Source of the DNA: Octopus sinensis
Lineage: Eukaryota
Reading direction: 5' to 3'
Assembly (NCBI RefSeq): GCF_006345805.1
Contig: NC_043018.1
Coordinates: forward strand, 29,264,001-29,328,000
Length of the DNA stretch: 64,000 bases
A program made the position numbers and the translations under genes. A model generated the notes under the pieces. It was not told the DNA's origin, did no database searches, and saw only the letters and a list, made by a program, of their open reading frames with translations. Positions 5,596 to 45,735 of the stretch are shown piece by piece. The stretch's first letter is position 1. Each line of letters starts with the position of its first letter.

Positions 5596-6169
5596 AGGCA
5601 CACATACATGGAGATTCATACAGTGACTCACACACAAGCGCGCGCGCAGAGTTAAATATTCTTATCTATACATGCAGAAATATACTCATCTATATAATTT
5701 TATATGCATGTTTGTGTATATGTATATAAGTATGTGTGCTTGTGTGTGTGTGTGTGCGAGTTAGCACGCGTGTGTATGTGAGTGTATGTGTGCGTATGTG
5801 TGAGTATATGTGCGTGTATGTGAGTGTATGTGTGCGCATGTGTGAGTATATGCGCGTGTATGTGTGTATGTGTGTGCGTCTGTGTATGTTCTTTGACTCC
5901 GTGTAGTCGTTTGAACAAGAATGTTTCTGATTACAATTTCATTTGAACGACCAATGCTGAACTTCTAGCAGCATACCAAACTTAACGCCCCTATAGATAC
6001 TGCAATATTGCAATACCAGGCCAATCCCGTGGCAAAGGCGGAGCAAACCCTTAACTCTTCGCCTCATTTTAAAAATCAGTTTAATATCGATCGCCCCAAA
6101 TATAGACGATATCAGCTATTAAGATGATAAGAACGGATACTACACTTTGATCTTAGCCAAAAAGGGGGC

Positions 6170-11660: not shown

Positions 11661-11726
<66 letters not shown>

Positions 11727-11883
11727 ATACTTGCCATCTCTGTATGGTTAACCACTAAGGGTGGGTGTTACTGTAGCTTGTAGCCGCGGGAAAACATCGT
11801 CTCCAGCTGGCTTTAGGCACACTTTCTGTGCCCTTATGGTTTTGCAAAGGGAGGTCACCTTTCCCTCGTCAACCTAAGTGATA

Positions 11884-11928
11884 CGCACGGACTGCAGTTT
11901 CTAGGTTTTGACCTTTCATCAGCGTACG
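11884..11928 (-). ncRNA. Minimal type I hammerhead ribozyme
   Basis: On minus: CGTACG-CTGATGA-A-AGGT-CAAA-ACCT-A-GAAA-CTGCAG-TC-CGTGCG. 6-bp stem I, palindromic stem III, GUC site. The stem II closing pair is an A.A mismatch. Confidence 0.85.
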
Positions 11929-12062
11929 ACAATCACCGGTTTTCGATGAATTTATCTTTATTATGATCAAGTGGGTACCTTACAGGACAAAACAATTACA
12001 AAAATGCTATGCGAGTTCGAATGAAATTATAAAAATTACAAAAATTAAATTTTATGTAACTT

Positions 12063-12150
12063 GAACGAAAACTTGGCTTACTTTGCCTTCAAACGAAACC
12101 TTGGCTTACTTTGCCTTCAAACGAAACCTTGGCTTACTTTTGCCTTTATC
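12063..12150. repeat. About 30-bp tandem repeat x3 in the LINE 3' UTR
   Basis: AACGAAA(C)CTTGGCTTACTTTGCCTT repeated three times. Confidence 0.85.
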
Positions 12151-12305
12151 ACGAGAACTTTTAGCGCGTATGTTTTCTTTTTTTTTATTATTAATTCTTT
12201 ATTTTAAACAGTTATGTACAGTGAAAGGTAATGGGAGGTACCAGTCTCAATTTTGAACCCGGCAGCCTATAAATCCCAGCAGCTGATTTTTCCTTTCCTC
12301 GATGA

Positions 12306-15300
12306 TTAAGCTGGGTTACTCTCACCCACCTTTCTCATCACATCCTTCCAACGTTCCATATACTCTTTCTTTGGCAGGCTCCTCTTCTGCAACCCCATCT
12401 TGCTCTTCAGATGATATCCGAAGTATGTTAACAAACCGGGGCCAGAGATAAAGGACCCTTTCACTAGACCTTCCACTCTAGTTCTCCATACACACTCTTT
12501 CAATACTGCCACCGTACAGTAAAAACAAGCCTTACCTTCCTTTGAGAGTCCAGTTGGCGGTATCATCTTAATCATAGATCCAGCCGACAGCTGTACTCGT
12601 CCCAGATGCGACAACACGTGTTCCACGTAACTTATCAAGCCTGACAGCTCCCGACATTGTACAAAAGCGTGTTGAACGGTTTCATCGTCCAACCCACATC
12701 TTGGACACGTCGGTGGCACTGACATTCCGTGTCTGGATAACTTCTCGCGAACAGGTAATGCATTCCTATAGCACTGCCAGGTCAGGGATATTTAGTAATT
12801 ATCCAAATACCCCGACCTGAAAGTCTTCTTAAACAGGTTGGAGAGTTGATCCTCATCGAACCCCAGAGCCTTTCCTAGGACGTCGTCATTTTCCCTTCTA
12901 CCAGCCCTTTACCGAGGTGGTATTCCCGCTGCCGGTTTTGCCCATCTTGTGGATCAGCCAGAGTGCCTGTCGGCACTCCTTCTGCCATGAAGTCAGGTTA
13001 CGTCCTTTAATGAGACTGGGTGTAAATCCCTCCATAGAGGCCGGTCGCGGGAAGAATTCCTCTGCCAGCGAACTCCACACCTTATCATCCTCCAGGTAAC
13101 ACCAGAGGTGTCTCAGCCTCAACGCATGCTTGCGCATCATTAGCCAAGGCATCCCCAGTCCACCCTTTAGCGGTTCCTGGCAACACACGGAGCGTCTCAC
13201 AAGTGGCTTTCCTCCTTTCCACAAAAAGCGGAAAAGGAGTCGTTCCAACTTGTTTAACCACGAATCGGGGCACGGCACGACGGTCAGGCGGTAGGTGACG
13301 ACAGAGGCTATAAACATCTGTGCCACCTCCGCTCTCCCTTTCAAGGAAAGATGCCTTCCGGACCACTTCCGGACCACTTCCGTGCTATGGCATCCACCTT
13401 GCTCGTTACCTCGCTCCAATTCTTCTCCGTCTGGGAGTCTGGACCAAACCAGACTCCGAGCAATTTAACAGGACCATCCGTCCAGTGTCCAACAACACTG
13501 GACGGTATCGGGTTGTTCCTCCAGGTGCCGAAGCGCAAACCGATGAACTTGTCCCTGTTAACTTTTGCCCCTGCCACCGCTTCGTATCTATGGAGAGCAC
13601 CTGGTAACCGAGGTAGCTGGGTTCCGTTGGACACGATGAGGGTGACGTCATCCGCATAGGCAGAAACAGACTTACCGCATCCGATCTCATTAGGGTTGCC
13701 TCCCAACTTCTCCAGCTTCCGCAGCAATGGCTCAAGAGCCAAAACATACAGGAGCGGGGACAAGGGGCACCCTTGACGAACTGAACGCTTGATCGAAAAC
13801 GGCTTCGTTAGGTAACCGTTTATCTGGACTGTGGACTTGATGCCGCTATACATAGCTGAGATCCACCCGCAGAAGCTAGGGCCCAGCCCAGCCGCTTCGA
13901 GGACCGCCGCCAAGTACCGATGGTCTACCCTATCAAACGCTTTACTTTGGTTTAAATGGACCAATGCCCCTCCTTTGCCGTCTAATTTCCCGACCCTATC
14001 TATAGTGTAGCGGAGAAGGTGAAGATTATCCTGGATCGACCTGCCTGGGATTGCACATGTCTGTGCCTTCCCGACAAGTTTCTCCACGACAGCCGTCAAC
14101 CTTTTTGCTAACACCTTGGCCAAAATCTTAAACTCTACATTAAGTAGAGTTATGGGCCTGTAATTACTAATACTGTCCCCCTTGCTCGGGTCTTTCTGGA
14201 CCAGCGTCACAACTCCCCGACTCACAGAGCTGGGAATCCTCCCATTCTGTTGCCAGTTTGCATAGACGCTTGCCAGTATGTCCCCGAACAAGTCCGGTAT
14301 ACAACAATAAAATTCATAGAGCAGACCATCCAACCCCGGCGACTTTTCCCCGGCGCACTCGGCCATAACCCCTCTTACCTCTGCGGGAGAGATCTATCCT
14401 TCACAGCACTCCGCCTCAGCTGCCAAGAGCCGAGGCCCACCAGCTAGGAAGTCCTTTAAGGTCTCCCCACGCTCGAGCGGACCACCGCCCCCAAACAGCC
14501 GTGCGAAATGCTGGTGAAGGACCTTCTGCATCTCCTCCTGTCCATAGATCTTGCGGACCTGCTCGTCGGTTAAGAACATAATACAGGACTTTTTGCCCTT
14601 CTGACTCTCCTCACGACGGGCCCATCCGGCAACGTTAATACCTTCTCGTTTTCCTGCACGTAACTTAGCTCTGACTCTACACTCCTCGTGCTTGGCGTTG
14701 AGGTGACGGTACAATACCGCTCTCGCTGCCAACACTCCGGATGCACAGCCAGATTCCATAGCCTCGTCGAAGTTCTTAACTAATTCGCCCTCTATTCTAG
14801 TCCTATCTAAACTTAGCTGCTTGCTAAATCTAATGGACTCCAAACGGATGGCTATTTTGAGGGCGAGCCACCATCTATTATCAATGATGGTGCCACATAA
14901 TGCCCTCTGTACTAATTCCTTAATCCGGGTACGGAAAGCTTCACAAGTCAAAATAGACTTGTTCATTTTCCAGTACCCGGGACCTTGTCTATGGCATTTA
15001 TCTACCTGTACCTCACACGTCACAAGTTTGTGATCCGTGTAAGGCACAACAGAGAATTGTGGACAGCTAACACTATTCCTATCTCGTTCCTTAACAAATA
15101 CTCTATCTATGTACGATCTGCGTGAGCCGTCATTATTACTCCACGTCCACTGTGGAAAGTTCGGCTCATCCAGTCGAAAACGGTCTACTAGATTAAAGCC
15201 CGCTAGTAGAGCCTTGAGGCCAGGATTCCCCTTCCTATCGCTCGAGCCTACACCATCCACCCGCGCATCGAGAATGGTGTTGAAATCCCCTACCAAAACT

Positions 15301-15698
15301 ACCGTTTTGGACGTCACTAGAAAGTGCTCCAGTTCCCGAAAAAAACCGGTCTGCCCACGTCCATTAGGAGCGTAGACAGCCACCAACCTGAAGGACTGCT
15401 TACTCACGTGCGTCACATCTAGGACAACCAGCCTACCTTCTGGGTCCAGAAAGACAGTACTTACCTGTAAGTCCAAGTTCTTCCTGAAAAGAACTGCCAC
15501 GCCTGCACCTCCCTCTCGGCTAGGAGAAATAAATTTCTCGTAACCATTGAGAAGTGGTGAGAACGCTTGGGGTCGTTTCATCTTGGACTCGGTAACAATA
15601 GCTACATCGATTCTATGTGAAATGAGGTCGTCCCGAAAACAAGCCTGTTTCTATTTCGATCCCATTCCACGCACATTTATACAACCTAACTTAATCAT
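12306..15698 (-). pseudogene. Tx1-like ORF2 (APE endonuclease, reverse transcriptase, C-terminal CCHC), disrupted
   Basis: ATG at 15698 (MIKLGCINVRG). Motifs VYAP, GDFN, IDRVF, TDH, KSPGLDG, YRPITLLN, KAFDRVDH, RQGCPLSP, YADD, CPRC..ETVQHAFVQC. Premature stops near 15651, 14394 and 12795; an 11-nt duplication frameshift near 13356-13381; a further frameshift near 12900. Confidence 0.95.
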
Positions 15699-15721
15699 CG
15701 AGAAAAAAGAAAATTATTTAC

Positions 15722-17245
15722 TCACGGTTGCGAGAGGGAGCCTGACAGATTCCTTCTGCCTGTCTCCCCCCCACTCGCCGTTGCTGCTGGGTGTTTCACC
15801 GGCGTTGCCACCGGGCTCTGGGTTGGTGTGGCTGCCAGGCTGACGTATAATTTCCCAGTTGTCACCTCCTGGGTGACATCCTTAATGAAGCCGCCTTTTG
15901 CGAGGTCTTGTAAGTTTTTTTCCTTTCCATCCTTCTTCGCCGCCCCTGTCAAATCGCCACTCCGCTTCCTTCTCGGTCGCTTTGTAGCATCTGATCTGCG
16001 TACTTGCTTGCACAAATTTTACTGCTCTCTCGTTCCTTGTGGTGTATGCTATAATTTTTTTCATTGGGTTTAAACCCTTTTACAGTTGGGGGGTGGGGTT
16101 TGTTAAAGTGCTGGCCTATAAATGTAGTACCGCCGGGGTGGGATTGGAGAATATTTTTAATTTGTTCGTCTGCGTTGTTTTTTTTTTGTTACGGGTGGGG
16201 ATTCAGGGGTGATGGATTTTTTCCTTTTGTTCGACACGTTCGTGAATTCCATCTCTTCTTGTATATTTGTTTTTGTTGTATTAATTTCCTCCGCCTTTCC
16301 TTTCTCATTTTGCATTTCGTTCTTGTCTTCCTCCTTTTTGGAGTTCGACCTGTTTATTTTTTCCTCCTTGCTTTCGCCAGTCGTTACTTTGTTCTCCACT
16401 TTGCTGCTTTCTGCGTTCTTCACAGCGTTTTGTGGGGGGGGGGCCTTGCCCGTATTATTTTTCTTTTTGCAAACGGAGCGCACGTGGCCCTTTTGCCCGC
16501 ACTTAAAACATCTGGGCCTGCGTCCTTCCACCGAAACTCGTATGGAGTGTCCCTCCCCCACGAAGACTCTGTCTGGTAAGCTTTCCAGCGTCGCATTTTC
16601 CGCCTGGATAATCATCTCCACCTGCTGGCCTCTCCAGTGTTTTGCAATTTTCTTCTTCATACTCAAAATTGTCAATTTTGATTCAACATCAAAAATGACC
16701 GCTGTTGCCGCCCACATCACGTCGTAGCCCCTTGGTATATCTTCTAGGGTCACTTTTGCTGTTCTGCACCCTAAATATAAGGGTAGCAGTATTATATTCT
16801 CGTTTTTCAACGTTTGCGTCGAAATTTGCCTTGCTTCTTCCGCCGTTTCAAAATGCGCCTCCATTGTAGCGCTTCTTGCACCTCGGTTGACATGACGAAC
16901 TTTACTCCATATTGGTGCCATACACTTTTCGACCATTTCGTTTTTTACGTCGGTCATTCGTTTTTCTTTTATATTGTATACCTTATAGGTGACCATTTTT
17001 TCCCTTATTGCCTGTATAGTCTCAGGGGGCGGTACCAATCGTGTTTCTTCACCACTTTTTTGCACTAGCGGTCTGAACTTGAATAGTCTCTCCATTGACA
17101 CCTCCATTTCTTCCACTTCGCCACCTACGACGTCTGAAAAACTGGGTTTTGCTTGTGTTTCCTTTTGTTTAACAGTTGTTATACCTTCACCCATCTCGGG
17201 AAAGTCTTTTTTTGAACTTAAGTCTAATTCCATATTAGACAACAT
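15722..17245 (-). pseudogene. Tx1-like ORF1 with zinc knuckle; C-terminal part probably frameshifted in homopolymer runs
   Basis: ORF 16157..17251 contains EGRRPRCFKCGQKGHVRSVC; first ATG at 17245. The 3' boundary is inferred. Confidence 0.85.
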
Positions 17246-17628
17246 TTTCAAAAATAACCTATACAGGTTAAGATTTCACACAAAAAAAAACACACAGAAA
17301 TTTTCTACCCCGAAAGGCGAAAATTACTGGGTGAAAAACAGTTCAACAATTATATTACGTGTAACACAACAAAGTAGTCAAACGGAAACGAACTCATACA
17401 ACGATTTACAGCAACAGAAAAATATTTGATATACTCCGAGGAAAAATTAAAAAAACAGCGGTTTTCGATGAAAATGTGTTCCAATGCAAATCCTTATATC
17501 GTTTATCCAGTAACTTTTCGTCACTCATCTCGAAAAACTGTATGCAAGCAATAATAAATCTGTGAACGAGGTATAAACAGTAACAGCACGACAATGTGAG
17601 GTATACTTGCTATCTCAATATGGCTAAG

Positions 17629-17683
<55 letters not shown>

Positions 17684-44485: not shown

Positions 44486-44525
44486 TATATATGTTTATGT
44501 CTCGTTCAGAGATTTATTATTATAT

Positions 44526-44598
<73 letters not shown>

Positions 44599-44725
44599 AA
44601 AAGTAAAGAGTGAAAAAACTACAGAAGGCTTAAATGTTAAAAAATATATATATTTGCGTCAATATGTCTGAAGAATATTAGAAAATTTTTTTAAAAATTT
44701 TTTCTCTTATAATGACATAACTTAA

Positions 44726-44764
44726 AAGAAAGACCGGTTTCGCGTGTAGCTTTTCAAATTTCTT
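44726..44764 (-). ncRNA. Minimal type I hammerhead (inverted copy)
   Basis: Exact reverse complement of 45063-45101. Confidence 0.7.
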
Positions 44765-45062
44765 GCGACGTTATGTTTATGTTGAATAGAGTTTTCGTTA
44801 TGTTTATGTTCAGGAGAGTTCTAAATAAGCTTTCGGATCATCAACACAAATTAGACTAAACAAGGAAACATTCTTCATTGAAAAGTACAAGCCCAGACTC
44901 AGCTATCCAAACATACTGATGCGAGAACTTCACACCAAGGGAAAGGAAAAAAATTTTAAGCGATTATCTCCCTTACACCGGAAGAAATCACTCACTACCT
45001 TCCCTTATTTAGAACTCTCCTGAACATAAACATAACGAAAACTCTATTCAACATAACGTCGC

Positions 45063-45101
45063 AAGAAATTTGAAAAGCTACACGCGAAACCGGTCTTTCT
45101 T
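45063..45101 (+). ncRNA. Minimal type I hammerhead, U3:A8 covariant with one extra U before the core
   Basis: AAGAAA-T-TTGAAAA-GC-TACAC-GC-GAAA-CCGG-TC-TTTCTT. Confidence 0.7.
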
Positions 45102-45735
45102 TTAAATTATGTCATTATAAGAGAAAAAATTTTTTTAAAAATTTTCTAATATTCTTCAGACATATTGACGCAAATATATATATTTTTTAACCTTTAAGCC
45201 TTCTGTAGTTTTTTCACTCTTTACTTTTTTCTATATATTCACCCACGTGCTTTCACAAACCAACTTTCTTATCTATCTATATATATATATATATATATAT
45301 AACTACATGTACGCATATATATAAATGTATAGATAAATAGGCAGACAGGCAGGCAGGCAGACAGAGATGTAGAAAGATAGATAAATAGATAGATAGATAG
45401 AAGAATGTGAGTGTGTGTGTGTGTTATGCTGTTACTAGACGAGTAGTACCCATTTTTCGGTTGCAGGCTACCAAGCCGACACTTCGGTGACACTCATCTC
45501 TTTTCCTGTGAATGTATAAATAAATATCTACTCTACAAATTGTTCTCTCTAACTCTTCAGTTCAACCTTAAATTGTTTTCGTTTAAACAGAACATAGAAA
45601 CAAACATACATATATATACATGCATTCATACATACATACATATGTGCGTATGTGCTACGTGTGTATGTATGTATGTATGTGTGAATGTAAGTATGAATGT
45701 ATGTATATGTGTGTGCATTTAAATATATAGAAGTA

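Follow-up and report, generated by a model that had tools for sequence, protein, structure and literature searches.

Base-precise insertion of L1/Tx1-group LINEs and ORF1-only elements into a hammerhead ribozyme repeat of Octopus sinensis

Several long interspersed elements (LINEs) of the Tx1 clade are site-specific, among them Tx1L in the piggyBac element Tx1D, Tx1-Mar in Mariner-N4, Tx1-9_AMi in Harbinger, Keno in the U2 small nuclear RNA (snRNA) gene, and Kibi/Koshi, and the targets described for the clade comprise DNA transposons, long terminal repeat (LTR) elements, U2, microsatellites and unnamed satellites (PMC4494074; this and all other papers are cited from the parts available to us). 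Non-LTR retrozymes are partly tandem, non-coding monomers of 150-450 nt that carry a type I hammerhead ribozyme with a short palindromic helix III (PMC7229834; bioRxiv 10.64898/2026.07.22.740005), and Penelope-type insertions show 5' truncation, inverted 5' pieces and a tail of 30-40 bp (PMC8557442). Here we describe a 64,000-nt stretch of the Octopus sinensis genome (NC_043018.1, positions 29,264,001 to 29,328,000; hereafter the window) in which a full-length, now broken element of the L1/Tx1 group lies inside a 354-nt hammerhead repeat. This arrangement is one case of a real, base-precise parasitism of a ribozyme repeat by multiple element families, and the LINE is a target-specific LINE of a new variety, with a ribozyme repeat as its target. 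Our literature search, which left Repbase, subscription papers and the supplements of PMC4494074 outside its scope, yielded no description of a LINE whose target is a hammerhead or Penelope repeat. The legend of Figure 3 in PMC4494074 names 'satellite' targets without further designation that might be related; active L1-Tx1 elements have been counted in an octopus, with no targets given in the part available (PMC13282606), and PMC8869645 concerns DNA transposons.

The 3' ends of this LINE family (family 1) were collected across the 2.72 Gb genome with a 19-nt motif of the 3' end that is blind to the flanks, which yielded 46 places, compared to none for a reversed-pattern control. All 46 were read, and 45 of them lie at one and the same host site, the remaining one lying at the start of a U2 gene. 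Downstream of these ends we observed the host with its ribozyme (n = 34), the target followed by another element (n = 10), the host with a deleted ribozyme (n = 1) and U2 (n = 1), and every tandem array at the target (10/10) terminates in host sequence. On the 5' side, where 101 candidates were found, 40 scored and 30 retrieved, 25/30 ends stand behind the upstream half of the host and 5/30 behind the 3' end of another element. One copy outside the 46 (L138/L017) has the start of the target followed by an unrelated 3' flank. An earlier reading of the window from its letters alone (the sequence-only reading) had suggested that the LINE targets a retrozyme or Penelope-type hammerhead repeat, and had proposed to search for the LINE ends genome-wide and compare their flanks. 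That comparison strongly supports the suggestion, nearly all family-1 copies sharing the host flank, and overturns the accompanying reservation that the case rests on a single insertion. No relative was found in the metagenome contigs searched.

The family-1 insertions are independent of each other, since near-identical LINEs occupy unlike hosts with no correlation between the two. The full-length copies (n = 41) are 94.5-99.9% identical to one another, while their hosts, which we assign to lettered types, fall to 60-63%; L105 and L123, for example, carry LINEs 99.2-99.4% like those of B copies in hosts only 64-70% like B hosts. Among 18 B copies, LINE and host distances are uncorrelated (Mantel rho 0.07, p 0.34; rho 0.01, p 0.47), and a correlation that had at first been apparent within B was gone under permutation without the outlier L136. 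Empty hosts are plentiful, with 3007 (A type) and 1373 (B type) first-look candidates in the genome; 28 of the top 30 A loci have no family-1 LINE, and the empty-site joint is seen in the contigs of 4/4 sequencing runs. If, instead, one or a few chance insertions had multiplied along with their host, through Penelope machinery or duplication, one might expect what the B group displays, namely youth in both LINE (median 99.5%) and host (96-97%), and L127 and L128 do resemble one duplicated locus. Such hitchhiking is nevertheless highly improbable: besides the occurrence of near-identical LINEs in hosts that differ, filled and empty copies have at least five host haplotypes in common, host segments spanning the site in inverted or tandem arrangement carry no insertion within the same loci (e.g. 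L109, L110, L120, L126, L143), the 5'-truncated copies L109 and L269 each carry their own 16-17-nt duplication, and three element families are found at the site.

The window copy displays the arrangement as follows, with all features on the minus strand.

11719..11950, minus strand: downstream half of the retrozyme monomer that serves as host, with target copy, hammerhead, 3' arm and tail
11719..11757, minus strand: 39-nt terminal extension, a repeat of 17595-17633 (34/39 match) that fits the 30-40 bp tail of Penelope-type insertions (PMC8557442)
11884..11928, minus strand: type I hammerhead, with stem I at 11923-11928/11884-11889, core at 11916-11922, a palindromic helix III and GUC at 11890-11892
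11934..11950, minus strand: target duplication (17 nt), 3' copy, consisting of local host sequence; nick at 11950/11951
11951..17455, minus strand: full-length LINE of family 1, A lineage, without poly(A) tail
11957..11962, minus strand: AATAAA near the element end
12309..15698, minus strand: remnant of open reading frame 2 (ORF2), with APE endonuclease, reverse transcriptase (RT) and zinc-binding domain, interrupted by 3 stops and 2 frame changes
16157..17245, minus strand: ORF1, 362 aa, with one CCHC knuckle below the Pfam gathering score
17456..17472, minus strand: 5' copy of the 17-nt target, unlike the 3' copy at position 15, a change common to L127/L128; read as a donor-derived leader
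17473..17633, minus strand: host monomer, upstream half, which has the 39-nt repeat at its end, beside (TA)n
17493..17500, minus strand: TATA-like box ~25 nt upstream of the nick
17520..17529, minus strand: motif like a proximal sequence element (PSE), ~53 nt upstream of the nick, with one base changed in the window copy

The stops in ORF2 fall at residues 16, 435 and 968. Several details of the sequence-only reading can be placed within this map. The unit is, as described there, bounded by 39-nt direct repeats, and the GUC cleavage site lies between 11890 and 11889, 61 nt past the LINE end, with a single minus-strand core. The 14-bp target site duplication reported there is present (11937-11950 and 17459-17472), but the true duplication is 17 nt long (11934-11950 / 17456-17472, one difference). 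The A.A mismatch closing stem II is likewise present in the window copy, but as a private change, most A-type hosts having C.A.

Membership of the LINE in the L1/Tx1 group is certain. ORF2 matches the Pfam families Exo_endo_phos, RVT_1 and zf-RVT, its best solved relative is human L1 ORF2 (E 3e-61), and an intact copy (P0001) encodes 1129 aa; ORF1 has a zf-CCHC match (E 0.0014, 19.1 bits) below the 20.8 cut-off. Cluster look-ups put names on few proteins. The nearest named RT is that of Argonauta hians (65%). The label 'Tx1' given in the sequence-only reading, in the sense of the Tx1 clade itself, is likely: in FastTree the RT joins a group holding two Tx1-annotated proteins with support 0.99, while IQ-TREE left its position relative to the Tx1 group open in both a quick and a careful run. 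These trees held 71, 33 and 29 proteins picked from matches, of which two are called Tx1 by annotation only and none is a curated Tx1 family. The RT stands in a clade of its own, with ~35-39% identity to vertebrate proteins annotated as Tx1, and scores 235-271 bits to the group with Tx1-annotated proteins versus 221-249 to L1-like rows. Its preference for a multicopy target is of the Tx1 type, with 45/46 ends at one site compared to the criterion of >20% of flanks (PMC4494074).

As a monomer, the host is 354 nt long and non-coding. Its copies end at the same 3' position, are truncated at the 5' end to varying extents, may contain inverted 5' pieces, stand partly in tandem and carry the 39-nt tail. 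The hammerhead went undetected in Rfam scans, and the structure given here rests on covariation across host families: among 78 distinct host hammerheads, each of the six positions of stem I shows several pair types, and most have a palindromic helix III. Judged by these monomer and hammerhead characters, the host is a non-LTR retrozyme with Penelope-type insertion marks. The hammerhead is co-oriented with the LINE, and in each of the 8 host types that were folded it lies 59-68 nt beyond the nick; a placement of the nick at the foot of stem I was rejected, since in 7/8 hosts the rod is longer and the nick falls within its 5' arm. An autonomous Penelope partner of the host was not found, the one Penelope-like family examined (20 loci) having a different end, and 3 of those 20 loci hold unrelated antisense host pieces. 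The abundant Penelope-like family of L092:1592-2600 and L146-L165 (1731 candidates) has a C-terminal GIY-YIG-like domain and, near its 3' end, its own hammerhead-like motif unlike that of the host. The label Naiad, considered for the Penelope-like ORF beside L092, is contradicted by its C-terminal endonuclease and by PMC8557442, and this ORF does not belong to the partner of the host. Two variants of the host ribozyme were also observed. B-type hosts (L166-L195) are young and numerous, and 28/31 empty copies combine a U3/G8 core with GUU as the site and a helix III of 1 bp, so that these hosts would be either an active variant or a retrozyme that spreads without cleavage. H-type hosts (L271-L274, L297-L302) show U3-A8 core covariation, as in the Penelope ribozymes of Schistosoma (PMC4209133). 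The window itself holds a further 30-nt fragment of the host repeat, at 44492-44521, between (TA)n runs.

Family 1 is not alone at this site. A second LINE family (family 2; 5.3 kb, ORF2 ~80% like that of family 1) gave 43 motif matches, and of the 20 read, 18 are in the host, 1 is in tandem and 1 elsewhere. Family 3 consists of ORF1-only elements of 1.6-1.75 kb that share with family 1 only ~14 terminal bases; 40 of its 58 motif matches were read, placing 29 beside the hammerhead host, 2 in tandem and 9 elsewhere, and no ORF2 match was found in L198, L199, L203 and L204 or in any of 17 further loci (17/17). Family-3 hosts include types E-I, which are homologous to the window host along the monomer and unlike it at the 17-mer, with nicks 27-35 nt before the core. 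Families 1-3 thus occupy one homologous position in host families that have little sequence in common at the 17-nt target. Occupancy is partitioned by host type: the junctions in E hosts all belong to family 3 (27/27; 19 by motif, 8 examined), as do 10/11 in H hosts, the other being an empty host, and hosts E-I are never occupied by family 1 (46/46 ends read) or family 2 (20/20 read). F/G hosts gave 16 matches, of which 6 were left unexamined and 2 are chance matches. A search among 20 junctions for a helper LINE of E, F/G and H hosts yielded only a family-4 piece of 850 nt whose 5' flank is not host. The E type is recent, its copies being 99.3-100% identical. A further ORF1-only element, L305, lies in a G-type host, and one host (L137) carries a chimera in which the 5' part of a family-2 element is joined to a family-1-like 3' end.

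Lineages within the families likewise favour certain host types. LINEs with the B-type end are found in B hosts in 26/29 cases and those with the A-type end in A, C or D hosts in 17/17, and on a 36-row tree of family 3 the host label changes 9 times, compared to a shuffled mean of 20.1 (0/200 shuffles as low). There are host cross-overs, namely L204a and L236 (H-type elements in an E and a B host, respectively), L105 and L123, and H hosts contain several element clades. A sister family whose 3' end is 85% alike was found at 14 loci (13 assigned by motif only); it has the same poly(A)-less end, dispersed flanks with 1 locus in the host, and an adjoining ribozyme in 1/14. Four of its 3' ends (genome C2:28710334, C11:22361665, C15:11619858 and C8479:20662) share an AT-rich flank, perhaps another repeat target.

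With the cut sequence so diverged, what is conserved at the site is neither that sequence nor the foot of a stem, but an upstream motif together with a TATA-like box. The motif AGTG(A/G) lies at -50 to -56 from the nick in 10/10 host representatives, and the same motif lies at -53 of the U2 insertion, where the gene is full length (183.6 bits) and was entered 3 nt ahead of its first base. Within ~680 nt upstream of U2, this place ranks first by a matrix derived from the hosts alone, and its score is reached at 5/127,956 window positions. The TATA-like box, at -22 to -36, is present in 7/10 hosts (other windows 0-1; 0/2000 shuffles). Filled hosts carry the motif in 31/36 cases (L099 being wrongly scored as lacking it) versus 38/61 empty hosts (p 0.019), in sets that were gathered differently. 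As snRNA promoters have a proximal element ~60 bp upstream (PMC4494074), the -53 motif is most likely the PSE of an snRNA-type promoter and the nick most likely the transcription start of the retrozyme. As a separate observation, the window contains a U2 snRNA copy without its first bases (5984-6168, minus strand; 86.8 bits), probably a pseudogene, whose upstream sequence is unrelated.

The junctions suggest how such a start site could be exploited. The duplication is taken as 17 nt because identical 17-mers flank 16/26 simple insertions; in the other 10/26 the two copies are unlike. The mismatches recur at position 9 (L097, L104, L112) and at position 15 (window, L127, L128), and at position 9, where hosts are polymorphic, the 3' copy agrees with the local haplotype, as does, judged by eye, the host upstream of the leader. 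The target is present once more after the local duplication in L099, L267 and L268. The 5' target copy is thus often donor-derived, and from the recurrent unlike copies and the doubled targets it follows that the element RNA carries the target as a 5' leader. After the leader all three families open with a T run; at the other end, family-1 3' junctions are precise and lack poly(A), AATAAA is kept by every family, and a weak pyrimidine-C-A core is present at most nicks and at sister-family sites.

We lean, with a little more than even confidence, towards insertion at the host transcription start with capture of an snRNA-type promoter as the best mechanism. An APE-type lineage of the L1/Tx1 group has colonised a large hammerhead retrozyme family at a fixed monomer position, ~53 nt downstream of the motif shared with U2 and ~25-30 nt downstream of the TATA-like box. 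There the endonuclease would nick with a 17-nt stagger, and reverse transcription would begin at the precise, poly(A)-less 3' end, by a chemistry modelled on Tx1L and L1. Because the start site is duplicated, the LINE would come to lie directly behind the host promoter, with an RNA that begins with the 17-nt target copy, as the donor-type and doubled leaders show. The leader would then anneal to the next target, giving uniform 5' junctions and recreating the site, and therefore copies stack in tandem, as is observed. The likeliest guide would be position relative to a bound promoter complex rather than the 17-nt sequence alone, with the hammerhead mainly a passenger of the host.

Several points weigh against promoter capture. 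The start at the nick is deduced from one U2 locus and homologous hosts, and the link to snRNA promoters likewise comes from that one locus, where sequence likeness alone could explain the insertion because the first bases of U2 match the B target at 10/14. The motif counts are non-independent because the host families are homologous, and the TATA window was picked after inspection. The L133 host is truncated upstream of the motif; like it, the hosts of L120, L138 and the window copy lack an intact one. Targeting purely by position leaves the preference of lineages for their own host type unexplained. The polymerase presents a further difficulty: T runs terminate polymerase III, so that the run behind the leader in all three families would stop it, and a TATA box is the mark of U6-type promoters. 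The TATA-like box here thus suggests a U6-type promoter, while the T runs argue against polymerase III. An snRNA-type promoter has been ascribed to newt satellite 2. Transcripts of newt satellites are apparently polymerase II products (PMC6765202).

Endonuclease specificity is the accepted basis of targeting in Tx1 and R1 (PMC4494074), with a role for a hairpin loop (PMC1950540), and the endonuclease alone might read the nick sequence here too, each host type having or having had a co-evolved autonomous LINE that also moves ORF1-only elements, and the promoter-like motifs being conserved for the host's sake only. The hairpin loop (residues 183-199) is indeed identical between families 1A and 2, which share targets, although 44/240 residues differ elsewhere; the B lineage, which prefers B hosts, has an R to L change at residue 193 within it, and the weak pyrimidine-C-A core would offer something to read. 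A strict rule by which residue 193 sets the host was rejected, however, with R193 copies in B hosts (L135, L138, L143 and several of family 2) and an L193 copy in an A host (L105), and no autonomous LINE was found in E hosts (27/27 family 3) or H hosts (10/11), though the E type is recent. Endonuclease reading and motifs kept for the host alone, taken jointly, therefore seem unlikely to us.

Alternatively, a weakly specific endonuclease could nick at many places, with insertion completed where host sequence in the element RNA (5' leader, 3' read-through) pairs with the target, so that a lineage 'remembers' its host. This would fit the ORF1-only elements, which lack an endonuclease yet group by host type, as well as the donor-derived leaders, the precise ends without poly(A) and the dispersal of the sister family with a short core and one flank shared by 4/14 loci; target sequence in the RNA is known to raise the accuracy of R1Bm, SART1 and R2 (PMC7265360, PMC3774820). 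On the other hand, the 18 B copies show no fine-scale tracking, though hosts there differ by few bases, the cross-overs and the several clades in H hosts break the pattern, and a diverged ORF1 protein or unseen helpers could yield the same grouping. We regard guidance by RNA in this form as improbable, if worth keeping in view; it is compatible with promoter capture. The combined proposal, that location behind an snRNA-type promoter complex, together with RNA-borne host sequence, guides the LINE to its site in place of a fixed DNA sequence, is one that we advance tentatively.

The ribozyme itself had been given a larger part in the sequence-only reading, in which the host hammerhead may define the ends of the LINE transcript. 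Cutting of the co-transcript would give a 3' end ~60 nt past the element and a 5' end from an upstream tandem unit. The co-orientation of the ribozyme and its constant distance past the nick (59-68 nt, 8/8 folded host types), the preservation by the duplication of a stem between nick and ribozyme, and the lack of poly(A) at the LINE end are all in keeping with such a role. Transcripts from snRNA-type promoters are poorly polyadenylated, and if that applies here a cut would be useful. Yet an intact ribozyme stands upstream of only 2/33 full-length copies, the leader maps to the nick and not to the ribozyme cut, and no hammerhead core or Rfam ribozyme was found at the LINE 5' end in scans of the window. 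Canonical cores are not enriched beside LINEs (A/C units, 4/13 filled versus 26/35 empty, in sets gathered differently), and the youngest lineage (median 99.5% alike) sits beside the variant core (U3 with G8, GUU, 1-bp helix III) in 18/20 filled hosts, as against 28/31 empty ones. Moreover, 13/14 sister-family ends have the same poly(A)-less end with no ribozyme, every family retains AATAAA, and hammerheads with a short helix III cleave poorly as monomers (PMC4209133). The proposal is therefore not supported, and we consider it doubtful.

A repeat search across the window was dominated by microsatellites. Apart from these, we noted a 480-nt tandem unit in three copies (3776, 4256 and 4736) and an inverted repeat of 181 nt, 98% complementary, with a spacing of 272 nt (44597-44777 / 45050-45230).

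Target-specific LINEs are thought to read their site mainly by the endonuclease, and here base-precise targeting outlives the divergence of the target. Elements that lack an endonuclease stay with their own host types. Natural variants of this kind allow direct tests of what promoter-bound factors, the ORF1 protein and RNA homology contribute. The finding further indicates where animal retrozymes, on whose transcription the available literature says little, may have their promoter and start site, and it bears on the re-addressing of retrotransposons for gene insertion. If targeting is indeed positional, one enzyme and its ORF1-only satellites would have followed a ribozyme repeat through near-total divergence of the cut site. 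The result would be four levels of nesting (Penelope element, retrozyme, LINE, half-LINE) and a target that is re-addressable in nature.

Compared to described systems, the host agrees with non-LTR retrozymes and Penelope pseudo-LTR derivatives in its 354-nt non-coding monomer, type I hammerhead, partial tandems, 5' truncation, inversion and 39-nt tail, whereas a LINE parasite and an snRNA-type promoter are absent from the available parts of their descriptions (PMC7229834; PMC8557442; bioRxiv 10.64898/2026.07.22.740005). The LINE differs from L1 proper, with its poly(A) tail and T-tract nick, in ends that are precise and tailless. Like HAL1 (half-L1), family 3 and L305 are ORF1-only elements of 1.6-1.75 kb (PMC5753468), but they are site-specific and their ORF1 is only ~26% (family 3) or 40% (L305) like that of family 1. 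Like R2, whose RNAs carry upstream 28S sequence, the LINE would live off the transcription of its target, with upstream target sequence in the RNA giving uniform 5' junctions; R2, however, has a restriction-like endonuclease and its own 5' hepatitis delta virus (HDV) ribozyme (PMC3774820), whereas here the host supplies the ribozyme, at a downstream position. In Dictyostelium TRE5-A and in yeast Ty3 also insert at a fixed distance from small-RNA-type promoters, the promoter here being predicted from motifs; TRE5 is an L1-group LINE whose ORF1 protein contacts TFIIIB (PMC5911963). Their targets, however, are tRNA and 5S genes (TRE5 40-54 bp upstream, on the opposite strand), while the present site is base-precise, co-oriented and at the putative promoter of a mobile ribozyme repeat, and is known from sequence rather than protein contact. 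The 3' flank of Keno begins at U2 nt 39 (PMC4640811), whereas here only 1/46 ends lies in U2, 3 nt before the first base. With Tx1-clade LINEs in general the element shares APE and RT, two ORFs, a long target site duplication, a fixed site within a mobile element, tandem stacking and non-autonomous riders at the same site (SINEU in known systems); it differs in that its target is a hammerhead retrozyme and in that the site is kept across hosts whose cut sequence has diverged.

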